This document shows positions 10,122 to 27,140 of a DNA stretch of 39,039 bases, piece by piece (within the stretch, counting starts at the first letter, position 1; each line of letters begins with the position of its first letter). Both the position numbers and the translations under genes were made by a program. The stretch comes from an uncultured Ruminiclostridium sp. (GTDB lineage: Bacteria; Bacillota; Clostridia; DSM-8532), in NCBI GenBank assembly GCA_964586745.1, contig CAZPIS010000001.1:1-39039 (forward strand), read 5' to 3'. Under the pieces are notes generated by a model that saw only the letters and a list, made by a program, of their open reading frames with translations, ran no database searches and was not told the origin of the DNA.

Positions 10122-11147
10122 TTAGATGGTTGTATCTATGATTATTTTTCCGTTTGCCTTTCCGGCAGCTATTTTTTTGATACTTTCTTCGAGTTGAGAA
10201 AACGGCACTACATCATCAATCAGAATCTTAGTATTAATATGGCCGTTTTCCAATAATGCAATGGCTTTGCGAAAGGCTTGCTTATTAAGAGCGAAAGAAG
10301 ACAAAATTGTGGCATCTTTTTTGTATAATTGAAATGGCTTGATCTCAATAGTGGCTTCAGCTGTGCAGATACCAAACAGTAGAATCTGCCCCCCGAACGC
10401 TAAACAATCTACAGTAGACTGCATTGAAGAAGCAGAGCCGGTACAATCGATAATGATATCGAACCCTTCTTGAGAAAGCTTTTTAAGCTTTGTGTTATCC
10501 TCATCATCTTTTGGACAGAGGGCCAAATCAACTCCAAGCTTACGAGCAAGCCGCAATTTTTCCTTATTGAAATCAGTTACGACAAGATGAGAAACATTTG
10601 CCGACTTAATCAATTGAGTAAACATCATGCCGATAGGCCCGACTCCATTAATTAGAACTGTTTTAGTGGGGTCAATCCTAAGCTTATCAAAAGCATAAAT
10701 AACTGTGGAAAGTGGCTCTGCAAAACTCATGGCATTGTAGTCCCTGCTTTGGATTTTGAATGCACTTGTTGCCGGGACATATACGTATTCCGAAAACCCT
10801 CCAAACCCTTTTAAACCTATGGTAGTTTTATGCATACAGTTATTTTCCATACTAAGATAGCATGCACTGCATTCACCACATGTGAAAAAGGGATTAATAA
10901 CTACAATATCACCTTTTTGTAAATTCTTTATCGATGAGCCTACTTCTTCGACTACAGCACAAATTTCATGTCCTATATGAAAAGGAAAGACTTTTCCGAA
11001 GATAGTTTCACCGCTATAACTATGGACATCAGTACCACAGATACCTGTTCGAAGAGTTTTAGCCAGCACACCGTTAGGTTCTATCTTCGGTAAAGGAACC
11101 TCGCGAGATTCGATTTTCAAAGGGGCGGTAAGAAGTGTTTGTCTCAT
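10122..11147 (-). CDS. Zn-dependent medium-chain dehydrogenase/reductase (polyol or sugar-phosphate dehydrogenase type), copy 1
   Basis: Catalytic Zn motifs GICGTDVH and GHE are present, with a structural Zn site CGECSACYLSMENNC and the Rossmann motif GVGPIG. The ATG at 11147 (MRQTLL) is preferred because the RBS GAAAGGA abuts the upstream ATG at 11159. Confidence 0.85.
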   Translation of the reverse strand: MRQTLLTAPLKIESREVPLPKIEPNGVLAKTLRTGICGTDVHSYSGETIFGKVFPFHIGHEICAVVEEVGSSIKNLQKGDIVVINPFFTCGECSACYLSMENNCMHKTTIGLKGFGGFSEYVYVPATSAFKIQSRDYNAMSFAEPLSTVIYAFDKLRIDPTKTVLINGVGPIGMMFTQLIKSANVSHLVVTDFNKEKLRLARKLGVDLALCPKDDEDNTKLKKLSQEGFDIIIDCTGSASSMQSTVDCLAFGGQILLFGICTAEATIEIKPFQLYKKDATILSSFALNKQAFRKAIALLENGHINTKILIDDVVPFSQLEESIKKIAAGKANGKIIIDTTI

Positions 11148-11164
11148 GTACCGTACCATCCTTT

Positions 11165-12325
11165 CTAAATACCTGCCTTGTGATAACGATCAGCCATTTC
11201 TTCCAGCGTCACGGGCTCTACTTTCGGTGCATAACCTGCAGACCCAAACTCAACAATTAAAGTGCCCACTACCTCGTGTACACCACGTTTAATGCAGTCG
11301 ATCAGTTTCAATAAATCAATATCAGTGATTTCTGTGCGGACGATTAAGGACTCCATCACAGGTGGTAAATATACTCGAGGGTCGAATTGGTCTGCTTTTG
11401 AATCCATAAGTTTCCATACGTCGCCTATTGTCTTGCTTTTTTGAAGGGAAGGGTTCTTAATAAAAAGCTCGCGTATATAACGTGTGACTGATAAACGAAT
11501 GTCGGTATCCACATTAATCTTACCTATTCCGCAAGGGATAACCTGTTTTAATTCAGAGATGGGTACTCCGTGTGCATTACTGATTTGTCCGCCTAAAGAG
11601 TTAATTTCTTCTACCATATATTGCGGTACCGTGGATGAGCCGTGTGAAACCAGTACACCAAAGATGCCCTCATGTTTTAAGTTCTCCATAGAAGCAATAG
11701 CTATTTCTTTTCGTAGTTTAACATTTTTTCCTTTGACGGCCCCATGCTTGGTCCCGTATGAAATGGCAAGACAATCTACACCGGTTTTTCGGAAGAATTC
11801 ACAAACCTTCATGGGATTTGTATAGGTAGATTGTTCTGAGAATACGTCGTCCTCTACACCGGCCAAGACGCCTAACTCACCCTCGACTGTAACTCCTCGT
11901 GCATGCGCATATTTAACGATTTCACGAGTAAGCTCGATATTTTCTTCAAAATTCAGACTTGATCCATCTACCATGACAGATGTATATCCACTTTCTATAG
12001 CTGCTTTTATGGATTCAAAATCTTTTCCGTGATCCAGATGCATAACAACAGGAATTGAGGAATTCTCGCTTACCGAATGTACAGCATCTATAATGCGTTT
12101 GGCACCAATCCGTTTGTCTTCAACGGTGCCCTTTAAAAAATCAGCACGTCCACCCATAAAAGCGTTGGCTAAATCCGCACCCTGTAGGATAGCAGCGGAC
12201 CTGAATGTTTCATGGATTTCAATGACGGCATCAGCCTGAGCGACAGTATTTACATTAAATGCTCCATGGGCGAAACCATATTTATAACTGGTTTCCAATA
12301 GTGGTCTAAGTGGTACTAAAGGCAT
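11165..12325 (-). CDS. Class II (metal-dependent) ketose-bisphosphate aldolase, expanded 386-aa paralog of Fba
   Basis: Motifs: MHLDHG, YAHARGVTVEGELGVLAGVEDDV (near-identical to the housekeeping Fba in this window), GTKHGAVKG and SHGSS. A GGAGG RBS lies 9 nt upstream. Confidence 0.88.
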   Translation of the reverse strand: MPLVPLRPLLETSYKYGFAHGAFNVNTVAQADAVIEIHETFRSAAILQGADLANAFMGGRADFLKGTVEDKRIGAKRIIDAVHSVSENSSIPVVMHLDHGKDFESIKAAIESGYTSVMVDGSSLNFEENIELTREIVKYAHARGVTVEGELGVLAGVEDDVFSEQSTYTNPMKVCEFFRKTGVDCLAISYGTKHGAVKGKNVKLRKEIAIASMENLKHEGIFGVLVSHGSSTVPQYMVEEINSLGGQISNAHGVPISELKQVIPCGIGKINVDTDIRLSVTRYIRELFIKNPSLQKSKTIGDVWKLMDSKADQFDPRVYLPPVMESLIVRTEITDIDLLKLIDCIKRGVHEVVGTLIVEFGSAGYAPKVEPVTLEEMADRYHKAGI

Positions 12326-12402
12326 ATTAAGAACCTCCTTACAAGAAATATAATTTGTGCAAATTTTGTTGCAAATTGTCTATGTTTGCGTTAGAATAGT
12401 AT

Positions 12403-12413
12403 GCAACGGTTGC
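12403..12413. promoter_or_regulatory. Operator-like palindrome GCAACgGTTGC in the divergent aldolase/lacI-type promoter region
   Basis: The 5-bp arms GCAAC and GTTGC flank a central G. A tandem TTGTGCAAATT / TTGTTGCAAATT repeat lies nearby at 12355-12377, and a GTTTGCG half-site at about 12384-12390. Confidence 0.35.
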
Positions 12414-12459
12414 TGTTTAGGCTGTTATAACAGCTTAAACATTAGTATAACGATTGCAT

Positions 12460-13548
12460 ATGTCAAACCGAAAATTAAATAGAATAGGAAGATTTAGATT
12501 GACCCTAAAAGAGATTGCAAAAGAGGCGGGCGTTTCTGTTTCTACAGTATCACGTGTTATTAATAAAAAAGGCTCCCATGTAGCCCGCCCTGAGATTCAA
12601 AATCGAATATGGGAGATTGTAAGCCGGGTAGGATTTGTACCGAATGAAAACGCCCAGAATCTAAGGCGAAACAGTAAAACAGAAAAAGCAGAGGGACCTT
12701 ATCCGATAGCTTGCCTTTTTGCACGAACACCGGAGTCTATTAATGACCCTTTCTTTTCCAAGCTGGCATGTAGTGTAGAAGCTGCTGCATTTAAAGAGAA
12801 CTATAATGTTCAATATTCCCTGACTGAAATTGATATGAAGCGTACTAATACTATACATAACATCATTGACATGAATATTCGGGGTGTAGTGGTTTTAGGT
12901 CGCTGTGACAAGGCACTTTTGAAATATCTCAAGCAGTACTTCCGTTTTGTCAGTTATACCGGCCTGAACCCGGCTTCTGCTAAGTATGATCAGATTATCT
13001 GCGACGGCAGAGAGGTGGTAGAGGCTGCGGTAGATTACCTAGTAGGCCTTGGCCATGGAAAAATAGCATACATAGGAGAAACAAATAATGAGAACCGGTT
13101 TGAAGGCTATCAAATGGCTCTACAAAAACATGGTATTGAGTTGGAGCAATCATATGTTGTCAATGTTCCGTTGTCATCAGAAAATGGTTATCGTGGTGCG
13201 ATGACATTGTTAGAGCGTGCACATGGAGTAACGGCTATTCTTGCAGCAAATGACCTAACAGCAATAGGTGCTATGCGGGCTATGCGTGAAATGGGAATCC
13301 GAATACCGCAGGATATGTCCATTATGGGAATCGATGATATCGATATGGCTCAATACATGGCTACCAAACTTACATCAGTGCATATTCCCGTAGAGGAGAT
13401 GGGGCAGTTGGCCACAAAAACTTTGATAGATCGTATCAATGGTGGCCACACATTACCACTAAAGATATCCCTTCCCTTTTATATTGCTGAGCGCGAAAGC
13501 TGCAGTAAACCTCCAAAAAATCCTTGGGTAAGAAATCCAAATAAATAA
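12460..13548 (+). CDS. LacI/GalR-family transcriptional regulator
   Basis: The N-terminal HTH LKEIAKEAGVSVSTVSRVINKK...NENAQNLRR is followed by a periplasmic-binding-protein-like sugar-binding core (LAANDLTAIGAMRAMREMGIRIPQDMSIMGIDD). The start is ATG 12460 or TTG 12454, and no strong RBS is visible. Confidence 0.9.
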   Translation: MSNRKLNRIGRFRLTLKEIAKEAGVSVSTVSRVINKKGSHVARPEIQNRIWEIVSRVGFVPNENAQNLRRNSKTEKAEGPYPIACLFARTPESINDPFFSKLACSVEAAAFKENYNVQYSLTEIDMKRTNTIHNIIDMNIRGVVVLGRCDKALLKYLKQYFRFVSYTGLNPASAKYDQIICDGREVVEAAVDYLVGLGHGKIAYIGETNNENRFEGYQMALQKHGIELEQSYVVNVPLSSENGYRGAMTLLERAHGVTAILAANDLTAIGAMRAMREMGIRIPQDMSIMGIDDIDMAQYMATKLTSVHIPVEEMGQLATKTLIDRINGGHTLPLKISLPFYIAERESCSKPPKNPWVRNPNK

Positions 13549-13688: not shown

Positions 13689-15134
13689 TTATTCGAATTC
13701 CTTAAATACACGTTCATAAGCTTTTAGAGTATCATCCAAAACGTCGATGGTTTGGAGGTTCAGGAAAGTCTTATTTCCGGCTGCTACAATTACACCTTCA
13801 GAAGCCAGTGCCATTGCAAATTCATTCATGCGTTTTTGAGCTTCAGCTCGTTTTGCAGCAATCTCTTCCTTACTGTAATTTTCAAAGGTTGCAATATGCT
13901 TAAAGCCTGTTACGTCAATTTGCATTATAGATGCTTGATGCGTAATTATTGCGGGAATTTCATATTTATTGGTAAGGTCTGTAAGGTCGCGTGCAAATTT
14001 TTCTGTTGCTACTTCCAGTTTTTCATGGGCATTTGTACGTTCCAATTCGCATATAGCAGTGTATCCGGCTGCGCAGCTAACAGGATTTGCACTGAGTGTA
14101 CCACCTAACATGATGGTTTTGCCTGCGGTGTGCGATACCCCGGATGTAACGAGGTTCATGATTTCATCTCTTGCACCGACACCTCCTGCAGACGGAAAAC
14201 CGCCACCTATAATTTTTCCGAAAACAGTGATATCAGCCTTGACGTCAAAAGTAGTTTGAGCCCCACCCATGCCAAGACGAAAACCGGTAACTACCTCATC
14301 CATGATTAGTAATACACCATACTTATCGCAAAGCTCACGAACTTTTTTATGATAACCCAACTGAACGGGTACACCGCCTGAGTCCTGACCAATTGGCTCA
14401 ATTAAAAACGCAGCAGTGCCACCCTTGGCTTCATTCTCAATGAAACGCTGTTCCAAAGCCTCAAGATCATTAATCATAACAGCAGAAGTATTTTTGAGGG
14501 TATCGTCAGGAACACCCACAGCAAAGGAGGTACCGGTATTTACAGTGCGCACGTCGTAAACAACATGATCACTCCAACCGTTGTAACAGCCCTTAAGTTT
14601 GACAATTTGATCCTTGCCGGTAAATGCACGAGCAAGGCGAATGGCAACCATTACGGCTTCAGTACCGCTGCCTAACATACGGAACTTGTCACAAGAGGGA
14701 TAATAGCTACAGATTTTCTCTGCAAGTTTTCTCTCGTATTCATGGTAGAGTCCTGTCAGATAACCGGTTGTGTTGATAGTTTCAATGACAGCATCACGTA
14801 TTGCGGGGTAGTTGTTGCCGAGAATAGTAACGCCACCACCGTTAAGTAAGTCGATGTAACGATTGCCGTCGATGTCATAAAGGTATGCGCCTTCGGCTTT
14901 AACAATATTTAGCGGAAATGGGTGGTTCAGAGCCAAATTATGCTGTACGCCACCGGGTATATAATTCTTAGCCTCATTAATGGAACTCTTGGATGTGGCA
15001 CACTTTTCGTCAAAGTGCTTTTTATAGCGTGCCAGAGCATCCTGACTTAGACGTTTTCCATTTTCAATAACATTTACGGCACGCTGATGAATGGCAGCAG
15101 CATCGTAACCGTTAAGATATGATTGATTTAACAT
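13689..15134 (-). CDS. Class III PLP-dependent aminotransferase/aminomutase, glutamate-1-semialdehyde-2,1-aminomutase-like
   Basis: 481 aa. Motifs: GSGTEAVMVAIRLARAFTG, LIMDEVVTGFRLG and the Schiff-base lysine motif FGKIIGGGFP. It carries an N-terminal extension of about 45 aa relative to typical GSAM. Its RBS GAAGGGAG lies inside the 3' end of the upstream kinase gene. Confidence 0.85.
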   Translation of the reverse strand: MLNQSYLNGYDAAAIHQRAVNVIENGKRLSQDALARYKKHFDEKCATSKSSINEAKNYIPGGVQHNLALNHPFPLNIVKAEGAYLYDIDGNRYIDLLNGGGVTILGNNYPAIRDAVIETINTTGYLTGLYHEYERKLAEKICSYYPSCDKFRMLGSGTEAVMVAIRLARAFTGKDQIVKLKGCYNGWSDHVVYDVRTVNTGTSFAVGVPDDTLKNTSAVMINDLEALEQRFIENEAKGGTAAFLIEPIGQDSGGVPVQLGYHKKVRELCDKYGVLLIMDEVVTGFRLGMGGAQTTFDVKADITVFGKIIGGGFPSAGGVGARDEIMNLVTSGVSHTAGKTIMLGGTLSANPVSCAAGYTAICELERTNAHEKLEVATEKFARDLTDLTNKYEIPAIITHQASIMQIDVTGFKHIATFENYSKEEIAAKRAEAQKRMNEFAMALASEGVIVAAGNKTFLNLQTIDVLDDTLKAYERVFKEFE

Positions 15135-15137
15135 TTT

Positions 15138-16622
15138 TTATTCTCCCTTCTCATTGTTCAATTTATTATATATTTTGCTTAACGCATGGAATGCGGATTT
15201 ATAAATTGGATATAGCCTGTCATAACGATCTCTAAATTCATCTTGGGGATAGAATGTCCTGTCAAAAGCTGATGAAGTTTTTAAAGTTTCATATCCTTTA
15301 GGATGCTCATTAAGACCTATTTCAATACAAAATGCTAAGCCTGCGAAGCGTGGATCGCGCATAGTTGTAATGGGATCACCTATAATATTAGCAATTGTCT
15401 GCACACTCTCAGGCAACATCATGCCTCCGCCGATACCACGCAATGAATTGATCTCCCAGCCATGCTTGGAGGAATAAAATTCTTTTAGCCACAATAGATT
15501 AAAACCAATTCCATCCAGTACTGCGCGGGCAATCTGACCCCTAGAGGTGGCTGATTCTATGTTAAGGAGCGAGGCGCGGACTCGTACATCATTAATGGGT
15601 GCTGAGGCACCGGTTAAAAACGGCAGAAACAAAACGTTTGCATATGAAGAAACATCGTTGCTTTCCTCTCCGACCAGAGAATATACATCCAAATTTTCAG
15701 ATATTTCTTTTTGGTAGTATGTTCTAATTAAATAATCGATGCAAGCTCCCCCGGAATCGGTTTCGAGGTAATGGTACCACTGACCCGGTATGGGTGAGGG
15801 GCGAATGGTGTCTACATCTTGATATTTGTCGGCCGTAACAGCCAGCCATGCAGAAGTTCCGATATAGATGTGAGCATCGCCGGGTTGCACACAAGCTGCG
15901 CCTAATATTGCCGTTGCATGATCATTACATCCTCCGAACACAGGTGTTCCCTCAGCCACTCCCAAAAGTCGAGCAGCTTTAGAAGTAAGGCGCCCAACCA
16001 TTTCATCTGACCTGACAACCCTTTCGGGAACTAGTCTGCGGGGGAAATCCGATATATCAAACTTGGACTCATCCCAACATCCATTTTGAACATCAAATAA
16101 GCGTGTGGTACGAGCACTTGTAAATTCATACACCATTTGGCCTGTCATGTGATATAAGAGGTATCCCTGTAAATCCAATAGCTTATAGGCAGAAGAAATT
16201 AGGTCAGGTTGTTTCTCAACAAACCAAAGCAGCTTGGCAATGACATTTTTTCCCGAATAAAGTATTTTACCGATTTTTTCGTTTAATCGATTAGCTTGAA
16301 TCACTGCTCTTCCATCCATCCACATAACACATTCGGTAAGTGCATTTCCTTTATTATCTACGAAAATAATGGATGAACCCGTATGGGAAATAGCTATTCC
16401 TTTTATTTGAGAAGGCAGAATTCCGGAAGCGTAAATAATCTCATGTGTAGCTTCTTGCATAGTTGCCCATATGCTTTCAGGATCCTGGACAGCCCAATTC
16501 AATTTCGGGAAATAGGTCATATATGGTTTATTACAAGATGTTAGTATTCGGTGGTTATTATCTATTAGTGCAGACTTAACACTCCCTGATCCGAAATCAA
16601 AAGTGAGTGAAAATTGCTTCAA
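15138..16622 (-). CDS. FGGY-family carbohydrate kinase
   Basis: N-terminal motif FSLTFDFGSGSVKSAL (DxGT/SxxK type), with GTSAWL and GIGGG motifs and a length of about 495 aa. The TTG at 16622 follows the RBS GAGGAGG by 8 nt. The ORF track's alternative TTG start is at 16649. Confidence 0.88.
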   Translation of the reverse strand: MKQFSLTFDFGSGSVKSALIDNNHRILTSCNKPYMTYFPKLNWAVQDPESIWATMQEATHEIIYASGILPSQIKGIAISHTGSSIIFVDNKGNALTECVMWMDGRAVIQANRLNEKIGKILYSGKNVIAKLLWFVEKQPDLISSAYKLLDLQGYLLYHMTGQMVYEFTSARTTRLFDVQNGCWDESKFDISDFPRRLVPERVVRSDEMVGRLTSKAARLLGVAEGTPVFGGCNDHATAILGAACVQPGDAHIYIGTSAWLAVTADKYQDVDTIRPSPIPGQWYHYLETDSGGACIDYLIRTYYQKEISENLDVYSLVGEESNDVSSYANVLFLPFLTGASAPINDVRVRASLLNIESATSRGQIARAVLDGIGFNLLWLKEFYSSKHGWEINSLRGIGGGMMLPESVQTIANIIGDPITTMRDPRFAGLAFCIEIGLNEHPKGYETLKTSSAFDRTFYPQDEFRDRYDRLYPIYKSAFHALSKIYNKLNNEKGE

Positions 16623-16757
16623 AACCCTTACCTCCTCATATTGTTTCAATAAGAGTAGCTTTCAAAAGATGTTGCATGCAAAATCGTATTGAAGGCAATT
16701 TTTTATTAATGATTATACTATATCAATACAACATCTTTGGAAACGAGTCAAGGATAA

Positions 16758-16779
16758 AACATGCAAACGATTACATGTT
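16758..16779. promoter_or_regulatory. Imperfect operator-like palindrome (AACATGCAAACGATTACATGTT) upstream of the kinase-aminotransferase operon
   Basis: The outer arms AACATG and CATGTT are perfect and the core TGCAAACG matches the 18122 palindrome half-site. CATGCAAA (16760-16767) also pairs with TTTGCATG (16780-16787). Candidate minus-strand promoter: TTGACT (16751-16746), 17 nt, TATTGA (16728-16723). Confidence 0.4.
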
Positions 16780-16828: not shown

Positions 16829-17965
16829 TCATCCAAATACTGTTTTACCCGCGATAATAGTTTTTTGGATATTGATATTTTCGTCAATTAAGACAAAATC
16901 TGCATCTGAACCTACCAAAAGGGTTCCTTTACGTCCGTAAATACCCATAAGAATTGCAGGATTACGAGTTATCGGTTTTATAGCATCCCACATAGAAAGA
17001 TTATTATTGCGCTTAAAATTGATCACAGCATCGTTGAGTGAAAGTACACTTCCAGCAAAGAAACCGTTATCTAAATGGGCGCCTTTTTCATTGATTGTTA
17101 CACGCTGACCTGCAAGAGTTGAAACACCATACCCCATACCTGCAAATCGCATTGAATCTGTTACAAGAATCATTTGATTTATACCCTTAAGCTTTAGCAG
17201 GACACGTTGTGTGGCAGGATGAATATGGAGATTATCAACAATCAGTTCGCAGAAAACATTGGGAGATTCGCTTGCGGCAGCAACCACACCGGGTTCGCGG
17301 TGCTGTAACTGATGCATAGCACAGAAAGTATGGGTGATAGAGGATGCACCCAACGCAAATGATGCCATTGCTTGTTCATAATGAGCCAGTGTGTGGCCAA
17401 TTGAAACGCGGATACCTGACTTTACGCACTGCGAAATAAAATCCATATTTCCGGGCTCTTCAGGTGCGATGGTTACAATTTTTATGGTATCCTCAAACCC
17501 GGAAACCAATGAATAATCTGCCGGTACTAAGAATTCCCGAGGTTGGGCACCACCCCAATCAGGGGAAAGAAAGGGACCTTCCATGTGACAACCCAATACC
17601 TGTGTACCTACGTATTGTGTATTCATCAATTCACGAATTGAGTCAATAGCCTTTCGTATAGCGTCAAAGCTCATGGACATAGTGGTAGGGTAAAGTGATG
17701 TTACACCGGTTTCAGGTAAACGGGCCAATAATTTTAAGGCTTCGTTATTGTTAGCGTCCATAAAGTCATAGTTATATGAACCATGTTTATGGATATCAAT
17801 GAAGCCGGGGCTTAAATACATTCCTTTTGCATCGATTACATCTTTTGATTCTAAATTAATCTGTGATACAGGCAATATATTCTGTATTTTTGTGTCAAAA
17901 ATAACAGCGTGGTTTTCAAGAACTTCGTTTTCCAAGATAATTTTTGCATTAATAATTACATTCAT
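16829..17965 (-). CDS. nagA: NagA/AgaA-family N-acetylhexosamine-6-phosphate deacetylase (amidohydrolase superfamily)
   Basis: Motifs: GFIDIHKHG (HxH), CHMEGPF, IGHT, THTFCAMHQLQHREPG, DNLHIHP and VTDSM. A GGAGG RBS lies 8 nt upstream of the ATG. Confidence 0.85.
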   Translation of the reverse strand: MNVIINAKIILENEVLENHAVIFDTKIQNILPVSQINLESKDVIDAKGMYLSPGFIDIHKHGSYNYDFMDANNNEALKLLARLPETGVTSLYPTTMSMSFDAIRKAIDSIRELMNTQYVGTQVLGCHMEGPFLSPDWGGAQPREFLVPADYSLVSGFEDTIKIVTIAPEEPGNMDFISQCVKSGIRVSIGHTLAHYEQAMASFALGASSITHTFCAMHQLQHREPGVVAAASESPNVFCELIVDNLHIHPATQRVLLKLKGINQMILVTDSMRFAGMGYGVSTLAGQRVTINEKGAHLDNGFFAGSVLSLNDAVINFKRNNNLSMWDAIKPITRNPAILMGIYGRKGTLLVGSDADFVLIDENINIQKTIIAGKTVFG

Positions 17966-18121: not shown

Positions 18122-18133
18122 GCAAACGTTTGC
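18122..18133. promoter_or_regulatory. Perfect 12-bp palindrome GCAAACGTTTGC, candidate LacI-type operator of the divergent nagA-like / ABC operon region
   Basis: The palindrome was read directly from the sequence. It lies 11 nt upstream of the -35 box of the ABC operon promoter. Confidence 0.55.
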
Positions 18134-18144: not shown

Positions 18145-18172
18145 TTGACATAGAGTGAACAAATGCTATACT
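18145..18172 (+). promoter_or_regulatory. Putative sigma-A promoter of the ABC/dehydrogenase/aldolase/TIM/LarA-like operon
   Basis: A consensus TTGACA (18145-18150), a 16-nt spacer, then TATACT (18167-18172). It is followed by a leader of about 135 nt before the RBS AAGGAGG. Confidence 0.55.
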
Positions 18173-19538: not shown

Positions 19539-19564
19539 TGATTCTTTATTAAGGAGAAATGACT

Positions 19565-20410: not shown

Positions 20411-21196
20411 ATGTTTAGTAATGCTACAAAAAGAACAATAACCAAAAAAATTATATATTTTATTCTACCCATACTATCTCTTTTACTGATTGTTATGGCA
20501 TATGCTTTTGTGCAAAGGAAATTGCCTCTGTTATTACCTGATGCAACTGGTCTTTGGAATCGTTTCACCAAAACTTTTACAAACCCAATTAAAAGTGTCA
20601 ATCTTATTGGACATATTCTGGCAAGTCTTCGCCGGGTAATGATTGCTTTGGTTTTTGCATGGTCGCTTGGCATCGGATTTGGTGTCTTAATTGGTTGGAA
20701 CAGGGTTTTCAAGGCGCTCTTTGGCAGCATTTTTGAACTTTTCCGTCCTATTCCGCCCATTGCGTGGATTCCCATTATAATTATGTGGTTTGGAATAGGT
20801 GAGTTTCCGAAGGTTCTCATTGTATTTATTGGCAGCTTTATTCCAGTAGTTATTAATACAGAGGACGGTATACGATTGGTTGAAAAAGAGTATATCGATG
20901 TAGGCCGAGTTTTTGGAGCAAATCGTACACAACTGCTTATGGAGTTTGTGGTTCCCACGGCTCTCCCGGCAATTTTTGCAGGAATACGTACTTCTGTCAG
21001 TAGTGCATGGACTGTTGTTCTTGCAGCCGAGATGCTGGGGGCGGATCATGGTGTAGGAGCGTTGGTAACCCGGGGTTGGAATGCCGGTGATATGGCGCTG
21101 GTGTTCGTGTCAATCATCTGTATAGGCATTATTGGTGCCATTTTGGCTTACGTATTGAACAAATTAGAGAAGGTGGTGAGTCCGTGGAACAACTAA
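20411..21196 (+). CDS. ABC transporter permease 2 (paralog of permease 1)
   Basis: EAA-type loop GRVFGANRTQLLMEFVVPTALP and the shared motif ELFRPIPPIAWIPI. A GGAGGGAG RBS is present. Confidence 0.85.
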   Translation: MFSNATKRTITKKIIYFILPILSLLLIVMAYAFVQRKLPLLLPDATGLWNRFTKTFTNPIKSVNLIGHILASLRRVMIALVFAWSLGIGFGVLIGWNRVFKALFGSIFELFRPIPPIAWIPIIIMWFGIGEFPKVLIVFIGSFIPVVINTEDGIRLVEKEYIDVGRVFGANRTQLLMEFVVPTALPAIFAGIRTSVSSAWTVVLAAEMLGADHGVGALVTRGWNAGDMALVFVSIICIGIIGAILAYVLNKLEKVVSPWNN

Positions 21197-21942
21197 ATGG
21201 ATTAGTAGTAGAAAATCTTAGTAAGACTTTTTATAGTCCCGAAGGCTATTTCACGGCGGTAGAGGATGTCAGTTTTACACTTAATGACGGTGAGTTTTTG
21301 GTTATACTCGGTCCCGGACGTAGTGGTAAGACAGTTCTCCTTAATATGATTGTCGGCGTAGAAGAAAAAACAGGCGGACGTATTATTTACAACGGCGCGG
21401 AGAAGACAGGTATTCATCCTGACTTTGGCATGGTATTTCAAAGCTTATCATTAATGCCTTTTAAAACAGTCATGGAAAATGTGGAACTTCCTCTAAAAAT
21501 ACGCGGCGTGAACAAGAAAGAGCGGAGAAAGGTTGCTCAGCATTACATTGAACTTGTAGGGCTTAACGGTTTTGAAAAGTCTTACCCACATGAGCTTTCA
21601 GGCGGTATGAAACAGCGCGTCGGAATAGCACGCGCCTACACGGCAAATCCAAAGGTTCTTATTATGGATGAGCCTTTTGGCCAGTTAGATGCACAAACGC
21701 GCTATGCGATGCAGAATGAGATACTGCGTATATGGGAGGCTGAGAGACGTACAGTTATTTTTGTTACAAACAATATAGAAGAAGCCTGCTATCTGGGTGA
21801 TCGTATTATTTTACTTAGCGATTGTCCTGCGAAAGTCAAGGAAATATACCCAATTGACCTACCCAGACCGCGTGATATGGTTAATCAGGAATTTCTTCGT
21901 ATTCGTACAACAATTTCTGATAACACCGATCTGGCTATATAA
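21184..21942 (+). CDS. ABC transporter ATP-binding protein 1 (canonical signature motif; H-loop His replaced by Asn)
   Basis: Walker A GPGRSGKT, Q-loop VFQSLSL, signature LSGGMKQR and Walker B VLIMDEP. The H-loop position reads VTNN (Asn codon 21769-21771). The GTG start overlaps the end of permease 2 by 13 nt, with RBS AAGGTGG. Confidence 0.9.
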   Translation: MEQLNGLVVENLSKTFYSPEGYFTAVEDVSFTLNDGEFLVILGPGRSGKTVLLNMIVGVEEKTGGRIIYNGAEKTGIHPDFGMVFQSLSLMPFKTVMENVELPLKIRGVNKKERRKVAQHYIELVGLNGFEKSYPHELSGGMKQRVGIARAYTANPKVLIMDEPFGQLDAQTRYAMQNEILRIWEAERRTVIFVTNNIEEACYLGDRIILLSDCPAKVKEIYPIDLPRPRDMVNQEFLRIRTTISDNTDLAI

Positions 21943-21958: not shown

Positions 21959-22717
21959 TTGGCTGAAAATGTGGACAATAGAGTCGAAAAGGTTTTAGTC
22001 AAGAATTTGACCAAGAAATTTGGTGACTTGCTGGTTCTTGACAATTTGAATTTTACTATAAAAAAGAACGAATTCTTATGTGTTGTCGGGCCTACCGGGT
22101 GTGGCAAGACTACGTTCCTTAATGTACTAACGCGAATTCATGAACCTACCAATGGAGATCTTTATATTGACGGAGAACCGGCAGATCCTCAGAAGCACAG
22201 CATATCCTTTGTGTTTCAGGAACCGTCAGCTTTTCCATGGCTAACGGTTGAGGAGAATATTGCATTCGGCCTGAAAGTGAAGAGACTACCAAAGAAAGAA
22301 ATTACTCATCGTGTAGATAGAATTCTGGAATTAATGGGCCTTCAGTCATATCGAAAGGCCTATCCAAAAGACCTTTCTGTAAGTATTGTACAGCGCGTTA
22401 TCATTGGACGTTCCTTCGCAATGCAGCCGGATTTGCTACTCATGGATGAACCATACGGGCAGATGGATGTAAAGGTGAGATTCTATTTGGAGGATGAGGT
22501 TATTCGTCTTTGGAAGGAATTAGGAAGCACTGTTGTATTCATTACACACAATATCGAAGAAGCCGTTTATTTGGCTGAACGTATTATTATTCTCAGCAAT
22601 AAACCCGCAGGTATTAAGGAAGAGGTTATCATTGATTTGCCTCATCCGAGAAATATTACTGACCCTAAGTTTATTGAGTATCGAAACTATATTACAGATA
22701 AGATTAAGTGGTGGTAA
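21959..22717 (+). CDS. ABC transporter ATP-binding protein 2 (degenerate signature motif; canonical H-loop)
   Basis: Walker A GPTGCGKT, Q-loop VFQEPSAFPW and Walker B LLLMDEP, with an H-loop ITHN. The signature reads LSVSIVQR (22373-22396) instead of LSGGQ. The TTG at 21959 lies 6 nt after GGGAGGGG. The ORF track's 21797 start overlaps ATPase 1 and is rejected. Confidence 0.88.
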   Translation: MAENVDNRVEKVLVKNLTKKFGDLLVLDNLNFTIKKNEFLCVVGPTGCGKTTFLNVLTRIHEPTNGDLYIDGEPADPQKHSISFVFQEPSAFPWLTVEENIAFGLKVKRLPKKEITHRVDRILELMGLQSYRKAYPKDLSVSIVQRVIIGRSFAMQPDLLLMDEPYGQMDVKVRFYLEDEVIRLWKELGSTVVFITHNIEEAVYLAERIIILSNKPAGIKEEVIIDLPHPRNITDPKFIEYRNYITDKIKWW

Positions 22718-22803
22718 AAACCACACTATGTGCTGAGTCAATACTCGCTAAATTATTTTTGTGCTAATTAATGCATGAATGTGTTTATGGAAGGAGCTGG
22801 AGT

Positions 22804-23817
22804 ATGAGAAGTTTAAGGATGTTAAAGTCTTCACATATGGAGTTAAGCGAAGTTGAAGAACCAAAACTCCTTGAGAATTATGCAAAAGTTAAAATGGAAT
22901 ATTGCGGTATATGTGGCTCAGACTTAACCGCATATACAGGCAAGAATCCTACTGTACGATATCCTATTGAAGGGATTGGACATGAGGGTATAGGTATCAT
23001 TACAGAAGTGGGCGAGAACGATCGCAACTTAAAAGTCGGTGACTACGTAGCTTTGGAGCCTTATATACCTTGTTTAAAATGTCACAGCTGCGCCGAAGAG
23101 CGTTACAATAACTGCACGGATATTCGTGTCGCAGGCGTTCACACAGGCGGTATGATGTCTGATTATGTAGTTTTCCCAATTCGTTTGCTATATAAGATTC
23201 CAGATGGTGTTTCACCCCTTGAGGCCGCATTAATAGAGCCGCTGACTATTGGCCTGCATGCAATGACACGTGCCCGTGTAAGCTCAGGAGAATATTGTGT
23301 TATAACCGGTGCAGGTCCAATAGGCTTACTTGCGGCATTGGGAGTTAAAAGCGTAGGAGCTACGCCAATACTGGTTGACGTTGTGGATGATCGTTTGGAA
23401 TTAGCACAGAAGTGCGGTATTGATTATGTTTTTAATAGCACATCCGGTGATTTAGCGGCATATCTTCACAAAGTTACAGGTAATATGCCCCACGCCATGA
23501 TTGAGTGTACCGGATCGCCGGCTATTTTGGAGGTCATGCATGATTATGTCCGACACGGTGGCCGTATTGCTCTAGTGGGATGGCCAAAAGGTCCGGTAAC
23601 AATTAATACAGTACGCTGTATTCAGAAGGAATTAGATATTCTTCCGTCCAGAAATTCCAACAAACAATTCCCCACTGCAGTTTCTTTGATTGCAGAAGGG
23701 AAGATTCCTGTAGACAAAATCATTACAAAGGTAGTGAATATGGAGGATACAGAAGCAGTGATACTCGATATGATTGCTAACAATAAAAATTACATGAAAG
23801 TAGTTGTAAAAATATAA
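22804..23817 (+). CDS. Zn-dependent medium-chain dehydrogenase/reductase, copy 2 (galactitol-1-phosphate / sorbitol dehydrogenase-like)
   Basis: Motifs: GICGSDL, GHEGIG, structural Zn site CLKCHSCAEERYNNC, and GAGPIG. The ATG at 22804 lies 8 nt after GGAAGGAG. Confidence 0.85.
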   Translation: MRSLRMLKSSHMELSEVEEPKLLENYAKVKMEYCGICGSDLTAYTGKNPTVRYPIEGIGHEGIGIITEVGENDRNLKVGDYVALEPYIPCLKCHSCAEERYNNCTDIRVAGVHTGGMMSDYVVFPIRLLYKIPDGVSPLEAALIEPLTIGLHAMTRARVSSGEYCVITGAGPIGLLAALGVKSVGATPILVDVVDDRLELAQKCGIDYVFNSTSGDLAAYLHKVTGNMPHAMIECTGSPAILEVMHDYVRHGGRIALVGWPKGPVTINTVRCIQKELDILPSRNSNKQFPTAVSLIAEGKIPVDKIITKVVNMEDTEAVILDMIANNKNYMKVVVKI

Positions 23818-23841
23818 ATTATATAATGGAGAGAAAATAAT

Positions 23842-24693
23842 ATGTTAGTTTCATCAAAAGAGATGCTTCAAAAAGCCTATGAACAACATTATGCAGTTGC
23901 TGCAATAAATACTCAAGGCGGTACTTATGATATTATTAGGGCTATTTGTATGGCCGCTCAAGAAACGCAAGCTCCGGTGATTTTAGCCCATTACCTTTCA
24001 ACCGGTGCATACTCAGGCCATGATTGGTTTTATGAGACCGCAAAGTGGATGGCCGGAAAGGTTGACGTACCTGTTGCTATTCATTTAGACCATGGTGATA
24101 CTGTGGAACACTGTAAAGAGTGCTTAGATATCGGTTTTACCTCTATCATGTATGACGGCTCCAGTTTAAGTATAGAAGAGAATGCAAAGAATACGTCCCA
24201 GGTTATTAAATTTTGCCACGAAAAAAACGTGCCTGTCGAAGCTGAGGTCGGTGAAATCGGTCGTTTGGATGCTAATGGCATTAATTTGAATCATAATAAT
24301 CAGGCAGACCCTGAGCAGGTAAGAGAGTACCTAAAATTGTGCTGCCCGGATTCCTTGGCTGTTGGTATCGGAAATGCGCATGGATTTTATAAGGCCGAGC
24401 CTGACATCCGTATTGATATTCTCAAAAAAGTCAGGACATTTACAGAGATTCCGTTTGTCCTTCATGGTTGTACCGGCATGAATGAAGACATGATTCGTGA
24501 ATCTATCGGTTACGGTGTAGCAAAGATTAATTTTGGTACCCAAATTCGATACAATTATATTAATTATTTACGTGAAGGGCTTAATATGGACTTTCAAGGT
24601 CATGCCTGGAAGTTGTCACAGTTTGCTGAGGGAAAGTTGCGTGAGGATGTGAAAAGCATTATCCGCCTTGCAGGGTCAGATGGCAAGGCCTAA
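23842..24693 (+). CDS. Class II ketose-bisphosphate aldolase, short GatY/KbaY-like form
   Basis: 283 aa with motifs IHLDHG, EAEVGEIG, GNAHGFYK and LHGCTG. Confidence 0.88.
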   Translation: MLVSSKEMLQKAYEQHYAVAAINTQGGTYDIIRAICMAAQETQAPVILAHYLSTGAYSGHDWFYETAKWMAGKVDVPVAIHLDHGDTVEHCKECLDIGFTSIMYDGSSLSIEENAKNTSQVIKFCHEKNVPVEAEVGEIGRLDANGINLNHNNQADPEQVREYLKLCCPDSLAVGIGNAHGFYKAEPDIRIDILKKVRTFTEIPFVLHGCTGMNEDMIRESIGYGVAKINFGTQIRYNYINYLREGLNMDFQGHAWKLSQFAEGKLREDVKSIIRLAGSDGKA

Positions 24694-24738: not shown

Positions 24739-25575
24739 TTGAAATCTATTTTTCTTAATCTAAAACGCTTCGATATTCCTAAAAAAATGGGAGGGGTTAA
24801 CAGTATAGCACCTATTAAAGAATGGGGAAGCTATATTATTAAAAATACACAGGATCAGCTAAAAGAGTACGACAAAGACGAAGTCGAATTTGTTATGTTT
24901 TTTCCTGAAGCCCACTTAATCGGTGCGGTTAACGCATTAAGTAAAGATAGTCCGGTAAGGATTGGCTGCCAAGGTGTATTTCGTGAAGATACGGCTATAG
25001 GCGGCAATTTCGGCGCATTTACAACAAACAGAACTGCAAATGCAGCAAAAGCTATAGGCTGTGTCGGAACAATAATAGGGCATTGTGAGGAGCGTCAAGA
25101 TAAGCTCGGTATTATGGCTGAAGCCGGTGCAGGTAGTACTGATGCGATAAATCGTTTGCTTAATAAGGAAATAAAATGTGCGATAGATGCAGGGCTTAAG
25201 GTCCTTTACTGCATAGGTGAAACAACTGATGAACAGAAGGATTGGCAGAATATTTTAAGAAAGCAGTTGGAAATAGGTCTTGACGGAGTAGACGAAAGCA
25301 GCGTAGTAATAGCATACGAGCCTGTATGGGCAATAGGTCCGGGTAAAACACCGCCTGATAGAGATTATATACAGATGGTAGGACGTTTTGTTAAGGAAGT
25401 TACAAACGGTGCTCCTGTTGTCTATGGCGGCGGATTAAAATCCGATAATGCTCAAATGCTTGCATCGATTCCTGAAATTAACGGTGGACTTATAGCTTTG
25501 ACCAGATTTAACGGTGAAATAGGGTATTATCCAAATGAATATTTGGAAATTATTAGAAAGTATATAAATAAATAA
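24739..25575 (+). CDS. Divergent triose-phosphate isomerase family protein
   Basis: Motifs: NLK (N-terminal Asn/Lys), GHCEER (where canonical TIM has GHSERR), IAYEPVWAIGPGKTP (catalytic Glu region) and YGGG. It is 278 aa, longer than typical TpiA. The TTG start lies 8 nt after GAGGAGG. Confidence 0.75.
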   Translation: MKSIFLNLKRFDIPKKMGGVNSIAPIKEWGSYIIKNTQDQLKEYDKDEVEFVMFFPEAHLIGAVNALSKDSPVRIGCQGVFREDTAIGGNFGAFTTNRTANAAKAIGCVGTIIGHCEERQDKLGIMAEAGAGSTDAINRLLNKEIKCAIDAGLKVLYCIGETTDEQKDWQNILRKQLEIGLDGVDESSVVIAYEPVWAIGPGKTPPDRDYIQMVGRFVKEVTNGAPVVYGGGLKSDNAQMLASIPEINGGLIALTRFNGEIGYYPNEYLEIIRKYINK

Positions 25576-25667
25576 AGCTTCCGTACGCTGTTACAAACTA
25601 AGGTTGCTTTCAGAATCCGGGAAACTTGATACTTCATATTAAGCAATACAGAAAGGAAGTATTTGAT

Positions 25668-27140
25668 GTGAAATTGTCTTTTGAATACGGTCATGGCACC
25701 ATGGATGCTAATTTACCGGATTATACCGATGTATTTATTCCGGGAGAAACAGTACCGGATCCTCCTTATCTAGAGGATGTTTATACGGCTACCAAAGAAT
25801 CTATTTTAAATCCCATTGGTATGGAGCCATTGTCGAAGCTTGCCAAAAAAGGCTCGAAAGTAACCATTATATTTCCCGACAGAGTAAAGGGCGGGGAACA
25901 GCCAACATCTCATCGGAAAACAGCAATTCCCATAATTCTTGACGAACTATATAAAGGTGGTGTTGAGAAAAAAGATATTCTTCTAATCTGTTCAAACGGA
26001 TTACACAGTAAGAATACAAAACAAGAAATTTTAAATATACTTGGTGAAGATATATTCAACCAATTCTGGTACACCAAGCAGATTCTTAACCACGACAGTG
26101 AGGACTATGAGCACCTTATCGATTTGGGTACAACAAAGCGCGGTGACCCTGTGCTCATGAACAAATATGTTTATGATTCGGATGTGGCAATTTTAATTGG
26201 TCATACTCAGGGAAATCCTTACGGAGGTTATTCGGGGGGCTATAAGCACAGCGCTACTGGGATTACTCACTGGAGATCAATAGCATCTCACCATGTGCCG
26301 GAGGTAATGCATCGCGGAGACTTTACTCCTGTAAGCACCAATTCATTGATGCGAACAAAATTTGATGAGATAAGTATGCATATGGAAGAGAAAATGGGGA
26401 AGAAATTCTTCTGTTGTGATGCGGTTTTAGATACAAAATCAAGGCAGATTGCTATATTCAGCGGATATGCAAAAGAAATGCAGCCCTTATCCTGGGAGGT
26501 TGCCGATAAGCGTACCTATGTTCATTGGGCAGAAAAGAAATATGATGTTATGGTATTTGGTATGCCTCAATCCTTTCATTATGCAGACGGTATGGGGACA
26601 AATCCTATCATGATGATGCAGGCCCTATCAGCTCAAGTAATACGCCATAAAAGGATTATGAAGGAAAATTGTGTAATCATATGCTCATCTATCTGCAACG
26701 GCTATTTCCACGATGAGAAGTTCACCGGATATCGAGAGGTATTTAATATGTTCCAGAATGATTACATGAATACTCTTGCCGATATGGACAGGTACGGTGA
26801 AATGTTTGCAACTAATGAAGAATATATCAGAAATTACCGTTTTGGCAATGGATTTCATCCGTTCCACTCCTTCTCCATGATAAGCTGCGGTCATATTGCA
26901 GAGATGAATACCTCGGCCATTTATATTGTTGGTGGCCAGGAGCCGGGCTATGCACGAGCTATGGGATTGAAGACAAGAGCAACTTTTGAAGAAGCTCTTG
27001 AGGACGCAATAAAAAAATATGTTGGGCCTAGTCCTAATATTCTGGCACTGCCAAGAACTTTTAAGATGAGTGCGGTACATCTATGTATGAAGAATGAGGA
27101 AAAGGGTAATTACGGTGTTGATTGCTGCCATGCAAAATAA
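25668..27140 (+). CDS. LarA-like (DUF2088, nickel-pincer-nucleotide dependent) racemase/epimerase family protein
   Basis: Motif order matches LarA: SNGLHSKNTKQE (ATGxHR-type His), ILNHD, and IGHTQGNPYGGYSGGYKHSATGI...SHH (the His, GFSGGxK Lys and downstream His region). The GVG start at 25668 lies 8 nt after GAAAGGAAG. The assignment is from recalled motifs, not a profile search. Confidence 0.68.
   Translation: MKLSFEYGHGTMDANLPDYTDVFIPGETVPDPPYLEDVYTATKESILNPIGMEPLSKLAKKGSKVTIIFPDRVKGGEQPTSHRKTAIPIILDELYKGGVEKKDILLICSNGLHSKNTKQEILNILGEDIFNQFWYTKQILNHDSEDYEHLIDLGTTKRGDPVLMNKYVYDSDVAILIGHTQGNPYGGYSGGYKHSATGITHWRSIASHHVPEVMHRGDFTPVSTNSLMRTKFDEISMHMEEKMGKKFFCCDAVLDTKSRQIAIFSGYAKEMQPLSWEVADKRTYVHWAEKKYDVMVFGMPQSFHYADGMGTNPIMMMQALSAQVIRHKRIMKENCVIICSSICNGYFHDEKFTGYREVFNMFQNDYMNTLADMDRYGEMFATNEEYIRNYRFGNGFHPFHSFSMISCGHIAEMNTSAIYIVGGQEPGYARAMGLKTRATFEEALEDAIKKYVGPSPNILALPRTFKMSAVHLCMKNEEKGNYGVDCCHAK

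Follow-up and report, generated by a model that had tools for sequence, protein, structure and literature searches.

Positions 1 to 39,039 of contig CAZPIS010000001.1, from an uncultured Ruminiclostridium sp. (the window, meaning the whole stretch of DNA analysed), contain between 7.76 and 27.14 kb a set of about 17 genes that, judged by their families and their neighbourhoods in other genomes, is a real, conserved and repressor-linked system for the import and catabolism of an amino-sugar-like nutrient. Comparison with related loci indicates that this island is a mosaic of two widespread modules: a core encoding a PFK-family kinase, a triosephosphate isomerase (TIM) paralog and a nickel-pincer LarA homolog, and a cassette encoding an FGGY-family kinase, a class III aminotransferase (AT3) and an aldolase. 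Both modules also live apart, and they are kept together faithfully in one clade.

An earlier note, made from the letters of the window, had described a 17-kb LacI-regulated catabolic island at 10122-27140 whose gene combination matched no recognised pathway. The island stands, and all 15 of the 15 genes that the note named were recovered with the same coordinates and families (open reading frame (ORF) list; Pfam and NCBIfam profile scans of window ORFs, judged against curated cut-offs). Its limits were drawn too narrowly: the PFK-family kinase at 7905, which the note had placed in the proposed pathway and which belongs to the system by its recurrence near LarA and the palindrome upstream of it, and a TauE permease, which the note had missed, extend the system to approximately 7.76-27.14 kb. 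The genes of the island are as follows.

7905-9062 (+): PFK-family kinase, PRK14072 subfamily (PF00365; NF010675, 415.5 bits against a cut-off of 273)
9259-9978 (+): TauE/SafE-family anion permease, TauE (PF01925, 96.8 bits)
10056-10080 (-): strong hairpin where the TauE and MDR1 genes converge (9-bp stem, 6 G-C pairs), likely the terminator of the AldL-MDR1 unit
10122-11159 (-): MDR1, Zn-dependent medium-chain dehydrogenase (ADH_N/ADH_zinc_N; top match L-threonine 3-dehydrogenase, under cut-off)
11165-12325 (-): AldL, class II ketose-bisphosphate aldolase with insertions, 386 aa (PF01116, 242 bits; TIGR00167, 218.3 against 215.6)
12454-13548 (+): LacI-family repressor (LacI helix-turn-helix and Peripla_BP_3)
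13689-15134 (-): AT3, class III pyridoxal phosphate (PLP) enzyme resembling glutamate-1-semialdehyde aminomutase (PF00202, Aminotran_3)
15138-16649 (-): FGGY-family carbohydrate kinase (top matches xylulokinase and gluconokinase, all under cut-offs)
16829-17965 (-): NagA-family N-acetyl-hexosamine-6-phosphate deacetylase (TIGR00221, 320.8 bits against 225.65)
18308-19450 (+): substrate-binding lipoprotein (SBP), NMT1/SsuA-like (PF09084; TIGR01728, E = 2e-12; lipobox FVSC)
19559-20398 and 20411-21196 (+): two ABC permeases (BPD_transp_1), TauC/SsuC-like, top match TauC
21184-21942 and ~21960-22717 (+): two ABC ATPases, both 252 aa in near-identical contigs
22771-23817 (+): MDR2, second Zn-dependent dehydrogenase (top model PRK10083, 217.6 bits)
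23842-24693 (+): AldS, class II aldolase, 283 aa (PF01116)
24739-25575 (+): TIM paralog (PF00121, 122 bits)
25668-27140 (+), the ORF reaching back to 25626: Lar_N protein, single-histidine LarA homolog (matches PDB 9q3j and 9q2u)

The AldL and MDR1 genes are separated by 5 bp, FGGY and AT3 by 3 bp, and NagA and FGGY by 179 bp. Among the enzymes of these two minus-strand units, NagA is the only one to clear a curated equivalog cut-off. For the LarA-like gene, GTG 25668 is the most likely start, giving 490 aa: homologs span 97% of the longer ORF, and it is with this residue that the alignment to the PDB orthologs begins. Similarly, the length of the second ATPase in near-identical contigs places its start at about 21.96 kb, not 21797, and the same contigs suggest that FGGY probably has 497 aa and LacI 353 aa, with a start near 12487. 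Homologs of NagB-like proteins, SIS deaminases (including the AgaS type), phosphotransferase systems (PTS), mutarotase, MPI, PGI and sulfatase were found nowhere in the 39 kb by tblastn, and neither a sulfoquinovose isomerase nor a sulfoquinovosidase is present in the window. The profile scans bear out the earlier description of a class III PLP enzyme and a NitT/TauT-type importer in place of NagB/AgaS and a PTS.

The evidence that carries the mosaic structure comes from genome neighbourhoods. In particular, 80 LarA loci (referred to by L numbers) were fetched with 10-kb flanks, their ORFs were called and clustered, and recurrent clusters were annotated; the resulting counts are lower bounds, many contigs being short, and collapsing LarA at 90% identity leaves 32 groups. 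The neighbours of LarA were counted as follows.

TIM paralog: 66/80 loci, 24/32 groups
PFK-family kinase: 61/80 loci, 20/32 groups
LacI regulator: 49/80 loci, 19/32 groups
Class II aldolase: 43/80 loci, 20/32 groups
NagA-like: 39/80 loci, 9/32 groups
SsuA-type ABC: 35/80 loci, 15/32 groups
Mutarotase: 30/80 loci, 12/32 groups
Divergent NagB-like protein: 28/80 loci, 12/32 groups
TauE-family permease: 17/80 loci, 9/32 groups
PGI: 16/80 loci, 12/32 groups
MPI-like: 10/80 loci, 6/32 groups
Mannose-family PTS: 7/80 loci, 1/32 groups
SftI-like (sulfoquinovose-isomerase-like): 6/80 loci, 2/32 groups
GlmD-like SIS deaminase: 2/80 loci, 2/32 groups
Sulfatase: 2/80 loci, 2/32 groups

In 51 of the 80 loci there is at least one amino-sugar enzyme (NagA-like, NagB-like or SIS). 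On the gene maps the order of the operon is fixed as PFK-TIM-LarA, with LacI upstream and pointing the other way, while the ABC importer, NagA, the dehydrogenases and the short aldolase vary around it. This order and the neighbour counts argue that LarA and TIM are the invariant heart of the system and that the remainder is interchangeable; the LarA homolog, which the earlier note had taken for an appended gene, is instead part of the most conserved operon core.

The second module joins this core through rearrangement. Five contexts (L081, L089, L169, L170 and L171) contain the same parts as the window in a different order, (ABC <- LarA <- TIM <- PFK) (NagA -> FGGY -> AT3) <- LacI (AldL -> MDR1), and shorter contigs hold part of this rearranged cluster. 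Their proteins are from 54% (PFK) to 85% (AT3) identical to those of the window, with MDR1 orthologs at 61-66% in 5/5 clusters. Within the AT3 clade at 80-95% identity, every recovered contig keeps the partnership (L081/L082, L089/L090, L169, L170 and L171). Further, the window's own gene order recurs in two independent sequencing runs (L172/L173), which argues that it is not an assembly chimera, and the ABC-MDR2-AldS arrangement is also found in L002. The neighbourhood check on LarA and AT3 that the earlier note had proposed thus found their co-occurrence conserved, and its view of one coherent LacI-linked catabolic system gains from this co-conservation and from the conserved palindrome described below.

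Sequence identities differ between the two parts of the island. The PFK, TIM and LarA proteins are 85-96% identical to those of L001, the closest relative, and only 54-73% identical to those of the AT3-type clusters, whereas the window's LacI is 68-71% identical to the AT3-type orthologs and only 43% identical to that of L001. The same chromosomal site, upstream of gatD/murT (window 6095-29538), holds different accessory sets in close relatives: PGI, NagB-like, MPI-like, sulfatase, long aldolase and mutarotase genes in L001, NagA, MPI-like and mutarotase genes in L006, and ABC, MDR2, AldS and NagA genes in L002, as in the window. With the PFK-TIM-LarA core staying constant, this site has the look of a hot spot at which modules are exchanged. 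Moreover, the AT3-type clusters have no NagB-like gene, which LarA-only loci usually carry; FGGY, AT3 and MDR1 stand where the other loci carry a deaminase, which suggests that they substitute for the NagB-like or SIS enzyme.

The LarA homolog belongs to a recently described subfamily. It matches PDB 9q3j over its full length with 830 bits and 9q2u/9q3k with 807 bits, and is 77-81% identical over the aligned region to these proteins, which are LarA_Bw of Blautia wexlerae and LarA_Sp of Streptococcus plurextorum, respectively (Gatreddi et al. 2025, PMC12611868). The authors showed that the second catalytic His of this single-histidine subfamily (His174 of L. plantarum LarA) is always Asn, and that its members form octamers with the nickel-pincer cofactor bound; LarA_Sp had no lactate racemase activity and a pocket unlike all known LarAs, and the substrate of the subfamily was not known (PMC12611868). 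They also listed glycolysis-like neighbours (PFK, TIM, aldolase, GlcN-6-P deaminase-like and mutarotase genes) and speculated about a role in carbohydrate metabolism. The motifs NGLH(113)S and TQGN(183)PYG of the window protein align with His115 and Asn185 of LarA_Sp. The cofactor-site residues are present (K193 for the thioamide link, H209 as Ni ligand, D71 and K74 for ribose and phosphate), and the pocket His/Tyr/His and the dimer Arg are also kept, so that all listed active-site residues of the subfamily are found. Compared with the loci of the reference proteins, the window adds FGGY, the class III aminotransferase, two Zn-dehydrogenases and the short aldolase, and lacks their NagB-like, PGI and mutarotase genes.

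Other assignments of this protein were rejected. A lactate racemase proper is at odds with the Ni_dep_LarA score (119.7 bits against 460), the Asn in place of the second His and the negative lactate assay of LarA_Sp; malate or gluconate racemases and epimerases were discarded with all NCBIfam LarA-family models far under cut-off. Profile scans found no larB, larC or larE family member among the other ORFs of the window, and the nickel-pincer literature of 2025-2026 yielded no later paper assigning a substrate to the subfamily. More than 3000 homologs, at 75-96% identity, are spread over Clostridia, Spirochaetes and gut Lachnospiraceae; the best 120 are 74-86% identical except one at 62%. LarA genes at 76-78% identity also lie on contigs of non-Firmicute metagenome-assembled genomes (MAGs), L047 (Bacteroides thetaiotaomicron) and L030 (Desulfovibrionaceae), and L047 carries a Firmicute-like set of PFK, TIM, long aldolase and LacI; horizontal transfer or a binning error could account for both. 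The covalent adduct of 316.5 Da on purified LarA_Sp has, by arithmetic, the mass of nicotinamide or nicotinic acid mononucleotide (~334-335 Da) after loss of water. An origin in the cofactor rather than in a sugar substrate is thus possible, and the adduct was not used as a substrate clue.

The AT3 protein is the only candidate nitrogen-removing enzyme in the window. It has an intact catalytic lysine motif, GK(I)IGGG, and an N-terminal extension of about 45 residues. An identification as HemL was rejected, as AT3 lies under all curated cut-offs (326.7 against 398, 310.2 against 527.3 and 245.6 against 637 for the HemL models) and an FGGY kinase is always adjacent. Its homologs number thousands, and the FGGY neighbour is constant down to 52% identity in the contexts examined. 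At 52-61% identity, these homologs occur in small cassettes without LarA (L083, L085, L087 and L088), found in gut Firmicutes and consisting of a regulator, a sugar transporter (MFS_2 or ribose-type ABC), FGGY and AT3. An aldolase, of PF01116 or of the fuculose-phosphate-aldolase family PF00596, is present in three of the four (L083, L085 and L087) and absent from L088, while L083 additionally has a Zn-MDR gene. The recurrence of such LarA-free cassettes argues that kinase, aminotransferase and aldolase form a self-consistent unit, for which no described function was found in the literature. A protein of the L085/L086 cassettes, P0215, is indexed in 268 blocks of the sequence collection. A metagenome scan seeded with AT3 returned mostly remote HemL-like loci at 30-36% identity, of which only L089 and L090 were informative.

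The remaining core enzymes depart from their housekeeping counterparts in specific positions. In an alignment of 67 orthologs, the catalytic residues of the TIM paralog (N7, K9, H115 and E194) are invariant, which suggests that enediol chemistry is kept. Loops 6-8 read IGPGK, YGGGLK and GGL(I/V)ALTRF, again invariant across the paralog family, where the gripper loops of canonical TIM are IGTGK, YGGS and GGASL; these changes, with a new invariant Lys and Arg, suggest that the anion-binding site has been rebuilt, in phosphate-binding loops 7 and 8. The paralog scores under all TIM equivalog cut-offs (for example, TIGR00419, 69.4 against 130.6). In PFK, the motifs PKTIDND, GR and SEG are invariant in 65 orthologs, and the donor signature is mixed, with Gly at position 104 (in GGN-G-S) and Lys at position 124 (in P-K-TIDND). 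By the usual rule (E. coli positions 104/124), Asp/Lys denotes pyrophosphate and Gly/Gly denotes ATP. Further, LarA-linked PFKs have an invariant GGN(G/D)(S/T)MD, with Asn at the position of E. coli Asp103, which binds Mg-ATP in PfkA, combined with Lys124.

The two aldolases were aligned to the housekeeping class II fructose bisphosphate (FBP) aldolase of the window as internal reference, with residue roles taken from PMC10665668. The presence of this separate housekeeping enzyme (33429-34457, + strand, PF01116 345 bits, 6 kb downstream of the island) argues that AldL and AldS are extra paralogs. AldL and 35/35 long homologs keep the equivalents of D255, R259 and R280 (H. pylori numbering), the 6-phosphate site that binds the distal phosphate of FBP (PMC10665668), and AldL has the motifs HLDHG, KHG and SHG (Zn-binding His), DTDIR and FDPR. 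In the AldS-type short aldolases, positions 255 and 280 are Gly and Trp, so that the R280 equivalent is gone; SqiA, the sulfofructose-phosphate aldolase, likewise has no Arg280 (PMC10665668). Overall, AldS scores 156 bits against SqiA and 167 bits against ordinary FBP aldolases. The label GatY/KbaY-like given by the earlier note did not hold for either aldolase, as AldS lies far under the equivalog cut-offs (226.9 against 383 for GatY; 195.4 against 443.55 and 153.5 against 542 for KbaY) and AldL scores lower still. MDR2 and AldS travel together in L002 and L017, and AldS homologs lie beside TauE and an SftI-like isomerase in L013 and L035.

Regulation by LacI is predicted from a palindromic 12-mer and the promoter-like sites beside it.

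18122-18133: GCAAACGTTTGC, a perfect palindrome in the promoter region from which NagA and the ABC operon diverge, 12 bp ahead of the top promoter-like site
18145-18172: best promoter-like site of the region, downstream of the GCAAACGTTTGC palindrome
7759-7770: operator-like palindrome GCAAACGTTTGT, one mismatch, upstream of PFK
7792-7821: promoter-like site, 10-of-12 match, after the 7759-7770 palindrome and before PFK
16763-16774: operator-like site GCAAACGATTAC, two mismatches, in the NagA-FGGY gap, weak on its own

The repressor has both a helix-turn-helix and a sugar-binding domain, and the palindromes at 7759 and 18122 lie ahead of transcription units. Across the 80 LarA loci, the 12-mer occurs 42 times with at most one mismatch; 34 of these occurrences, spread over 32 loci, are intergenic, the intergenic share of the sequence being approximately 10%, and the occurrences adjoin LacI (22) and PFK (21), most of them lying between these two genes. 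For example, L002 keeps the GCAAACGTTTGC site at the same place as window 18122, L171 has an equivalent of the GCAAACGATTAC site between NagA and FGGY, and the motif is also found in the PFK-NagA gap of L081 and L171 and in the LacI-MDR1 gap of L170. This comparison is good evidence for GCAAACGTTTGC-like palindromes as the predicted LacI operator, which would place PFK-TauE in the regulon. The AldL/LacI intergenic region (12340-12420) has no 12-mer operator; it contains an 11-bp palindrome with a one-base centre, GCAACGGTTGC, at about 12405-12415, which may be a variant or autoregulatory site, together with repeated TTGCAAA(T)T motifs.

The explanation given most weight, tentatively and with a little less than even confidence, is that the island forms one LacI-repressed regulon for an N-acetylated amino sugar or amino-alditol, its steps being read from gene families and neighbourhood. 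As substrate, an N-acetylated hexosamine or amino-alditol is the best guess, and it may bear a sulfate or sulfonate. It would be taken up by the SsuA/TauA-class ABC importer with its lipoprotein binding protein, and NagA would remove the acetyl group. MDR1, a threonine-dehydrogenase-like Zn enzyme, would convert the amino aldose to an amino-alditol; the FGGY kinase would phosphorylate this open-chain compound, a kind of substrate that suits its family; and AT3 would exchange the C2 amine for a C2 ketone by transamination, yielding a ketose phosphate. Together, the three enzymes would replace a deaminase by running the logic of azasugar (deoxynojirimycin) formation backwards. The PFK-family kinase would then add the second (C1) phosphate, and AldL would cleave the bisphosphate to triose-level products. 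The TIM paralog and LarA would act on one of the cleavage products or set a stereocentre right through transient abstraction of a hydride; the LarA step would be an epimerisation or an internal redox reaction, with an intermediate or product as its substrate. MDR2 and AldS would serve as an accessory second aldolase/dehydrogenase pair, and TauE would export an anionic by-product. The order of steps is much the same as the earlier note had proposed. The reverse-azasugar logic could also explain the minimal cassettes of AT3, FGGY and aldolase without an isomerase.

The TYB cluster for deoxynojirimycin combines a transaminase (GabT1), working at C2 of a ketose phosphate/amino-alditol phosphate, with a phosphatase (Yktc1) and a Zn oxidoreductase (GutB1) whose substrate is 2-amino-2-deoxy-D-mannitol (PMC4338435). 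The window likewise pairs an aminotransferase with a dehydrogenase, and has a kinase where TYB has a phosphatase, but the likeness lies in chemical logic only: TYB is biosynthetic and the window catabolic, and AT3 and MDR1 are likened to GabT1 and GutB1 by role. The pairing of an aldolase with a Zn-dehydrogenase also recalls the E. coli ydj cluster, which comprises the class II aldolase YdjI, the Zn-dehydrogenases YdjJ and YdjL and the kinase YdjH. The top model of MDR2 is the Zn-dependent oxidoreductase PRK10083, and AldS matches YdjI (PDB 6ofu) with 147 bits; however, these scores are all under cut-offs, AldS is no nearer YdjI than FBP aldolases, and the ydj substrate is itself uncertain.

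Several points weigh against the proposed pathway. The reverse-azasugar chemistry is an analogy, and the order of steps follows from family membership and neighbourhood only. The NagA family normally needs a 6-phosphorylated pyranose, which is awkward beside an FGGY kinase acting on an open-chain alditol. A plain fructose 6-phosphate product would make a private PFK, aldolase and TIM needless, so that the role of TIM and LarA is left unexplained. The SsuA-type importer, TauE and the sulfatase of the closest relative hint at a sulfur-bearing substrate, which the pathway does not require. Within the window by itself, the palindrome count is not significant, with 4 at two or fewer mismatches against 1.55 expected and 8/100 shuffles reaching 4.

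The main rival on substrate identity, possible although on the unlikely side, is a sulfoglycolysis-like route in which a distal sulfate ester or sulfonate stands for the 6-phosphate, as in N-acetylglucosamine-6-sulfate (GlcNAc-6S), another 6-sulfated hexosamine or a sulfoquinovose-type sugar. The PFK-family kinase would correspond to SqiK and the class II aldolase to SqiA, the Zn-dehydrogenase would reduce a sulfo-C3 aldehyde, and TauE would export the sulfur product; if the substrates were sulfo analogues of glycolytic intermediates, this would account for the private paralogs of NagA, PFK, aldolase and TIM. The families that define sulfo-EMP2, the SqvB-SqvD-SqiK-SqiA pathway of Bacillus urumqiensis, are a PF00365 kinase and a PF01116 aldolase (PMC10665668), and the window has both, together with a candidate C3-aldehyde dehydrogenase, a sulfonate/sulfite-type exporter and a Firmicute host. 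It nevertheless has no PF02952 isomerase, PF16161 mutarotase, sulfoquinovosidase or sulfatase, and it contains amino-sugar enzymes, TIM and LarA, which are absent from all sulfoglycolytic pathways. Membership of sulfo-EMP2 was rejected for the window, there being no isomerase, no mutarotase and no specifically SqiA-like AldS.

The top matches of the importer are SsuA-like for the SBP, TauC/SsuC-like for the permeases and TauB-like for the ATPase, all under equivalog cut-offs; the SBP has no close match among solved structures (best E = 0.03), and the SsuA family model, whose cut-off is 163.5, gives 143.8 bits for the commoner SBP of related loci. The window's TauE gene comes under the PFK operator, and a TauE-family gene follows MDR1 in L081. 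An SsuA-type ABC, TauE, sulfatase or SftI-like isomerase is present in 53 of the 80 LarA loci. In particular, the PFK-TIM-LarA operon of L001 contains a sulfatase with an N-sulfoglucosamine-sulfohydrolase C-terminal domain, and L013 combines an SftI-like gene, two TauE genes, a mutarotase, PFK and an AldS-type aldolase. However, these links are all at the level of families, and anions without sulfur are also carried by NitT/TauT transporters and DUF81/TauE proteins. The use of a mannose-family PTS by some LarA loci implies that a primary hydroxyl is free, and the minimal AT3-FGGY cassettes have no link to sulfur.

The loss of the Arg280 equivalent in AldS-type aldolases and the rebuilt anion-binding loops of TIM are consistent with a sulfo substrate, as is the lack of a conserved first sugar kinase in the loci with ABC, NagA and NagB-like genes (120 non-core LarA neighbours); however, AldS is no nearer SqiA than FBP aldolases, and AldL has the full phosphate-type pocket, although a sulfate ester could also fit. 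No paper was found that links LarA/DUF2088 to sulfated sugars or sulfatase, the literature on GlcNAc-6S utilisation held nothing relevant to the gene set, and a 2026 sulfoquinovose review makes no mention of a racemase, nickel or triosephosphate isomerase.

It is unlikely that the island instead encodes two pathways that share a regulator and an address and exchange no intermediates, with NagA-FGGY-AT3 and AldL-MDR1 handling an amino-polyol or amino sugar, and ABC-MDR2-AldS-TIM-LarA and PFK-TauE handling a different sugar. The doubling of aldolases, dehydrogenases and kinases in the window would fit such a division, as would the mosaic identities described above. Each module also exists without the other: AT3-FGGY-aldolase cassettes without LarA are known, and the 80 LarA loci have no AT3/FGGY within 10 kb (that of L002 would lie beyond the flank). 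Yet every recovered context of the AT3 clade at or above 80% identity joins both modules, in two gene orders with one LacI ortholog (L081/L082, L089/L090, L169-L171, L172/L173 and the window), only one importer is encoded for both, and an operator-like palindrome lies ahead of units of both. The absence of the NagB-like gene from AT3-type clusters moreover suggests a substitution within one route.

An ordinary variant of the N-acetylgalactosamine/galactosamine (Aga) or GlcNAc pathway is improbable. NagA would then be AgaA, PFK a tagatose-6-phosphate kinase and the aldolases tagatose-bisphosphate aldolases, with AT3 replacing AgaS/AgaI and with LarA and TIM as accessories. The likeness to the known routes (NagA-NagB; AgaA-AgaS/AgaI-kinase-KbaY) lies in a NagA above its curated cut-off and in a kinase and class II aldolase acting after nitrogen removal. 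Related loci strengthen it, as they pair NagA-like with NagB/AgaI-like genes (or SIS deaminases), PFK and a class II aldolase, their NagB-like protein also matches the galactosamine-6-phosphate isomerase model, and Enterocloster-type loci have mannose-family PTS IIC/IID; AldL, too, keeps a bisphosphate pocket. The window, however, has no NagB, AgaS or PTS and uses a class III PLP enzyme for nitrogen, its importer is of NitT/TauT type, neither PTS nor a sugar-type ABC, and neither aldolase reaches the GatY, KbaY or tagatose-bisphosphate cut-offs. TIM and LarA, the two most conserved members, would be left without a role, the latter from a subfamily whose LarA_Sp is inactive on lactate and has a pocket unlike known LarAs (PMC12611868), and FGGY, MDR1 and MDR2 would be unexplained.

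Very little probability is given to a desulfurising sulfoglycolysis, in which a 6-sulfated or 6-sulfonated hexose or hexosamine would pass through the PFK-TIM-LarA core. The aldolase would release glyceraldehyde-3-sulfate or sulfolactaldehyde, and the TIM enediolate would shed sulfate or sulfite to give methylglyoxal, an elimination that would correspond to the side reaction that ordinary TIM suppresses with phosphate. LarA would convert the hydrate of the 2-oxoaldehyde to a 2-hydroxy acid by a one-way, glyoxalase-like internal hydride shift, for which a single catalytic base might be enough, and TauE would export the sulfite or sulfate. Finally, a fortuitous adjacency of housekeeping genes (glycolytic isozymes, HemL of tetrapyrrole synthesis and lactate racemase as chance neighbours) is scarcely tenable, and the neighbourhood analysis contradicts it: PFK, aldolase and TIM do come from glycolytic families and the top matches of AT3 are HemL, but the set is co-conserved through rearrangement in at least seven contexts, AT3 is under the HemL cut-offs with its extension and coupled kinase, TIM is under all cut-offs with altered loops, the housekeeping FBP aldolase is separate, and the LarA subfamily is without lactate racemase activity.

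A literature search found no characterised locus that matches the set, and no paper that joins LarA, PFK, TIM and aldolase in one locus. The novelty claimed for the island by the earlier note therefore stands in that no known locus has this gene set, but the island is less unprecedented than the note implied, since publications already cover the LarA subfamily and its glycolysis-like context, and the enzyme families are familiar. New here are the PFK-TIM-LarA core with its candidate operator, the recurrent cassette of FGGY, class III aminotransferase and aldolase, the substitution for NagB in one clade, and the sulfur-related associations. The orphan single-histidine LarA gains a conserved context, a LacI-linked PFK-TIM-LarA operon with interchangeable amino-sugar modules, which narrows its substrate search to a short, purchasable list. 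The cassette of FGGY, AT3 and aldolase, abundant in gut Firmicutes, would be a PLP-dependent alternative to NagB/AgaS. If the sulfur link is true, it bears on the use of sulfated host glycans by gut anaerobes, and the desulfurising route, if true, would give the LarA subfamily its first function and a new type of nickel-pincer reaction.

The flanks of the island are housekeeping genes. On the left lie hydrogenase subunits and an aminoacyl-tRNA synthetase; the window's left end (159-3479, + strand) encodes a NuoF-like flavoprotein and the large subunit of an [FeFe]-hydrogenase, which together with MurT/GatD identify the host as an anaerobic Firmicute. On the right lie GatD/MurT, PolA, CoaE, the class II FBP aldolase and RNase J. 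For this FBP aldolase, the Met of MPLVNTVDMF, some 33 codons inside the ORF, is probably the real start. The nearest related loci are from Clostridiaceae and Bacillota MAGs.

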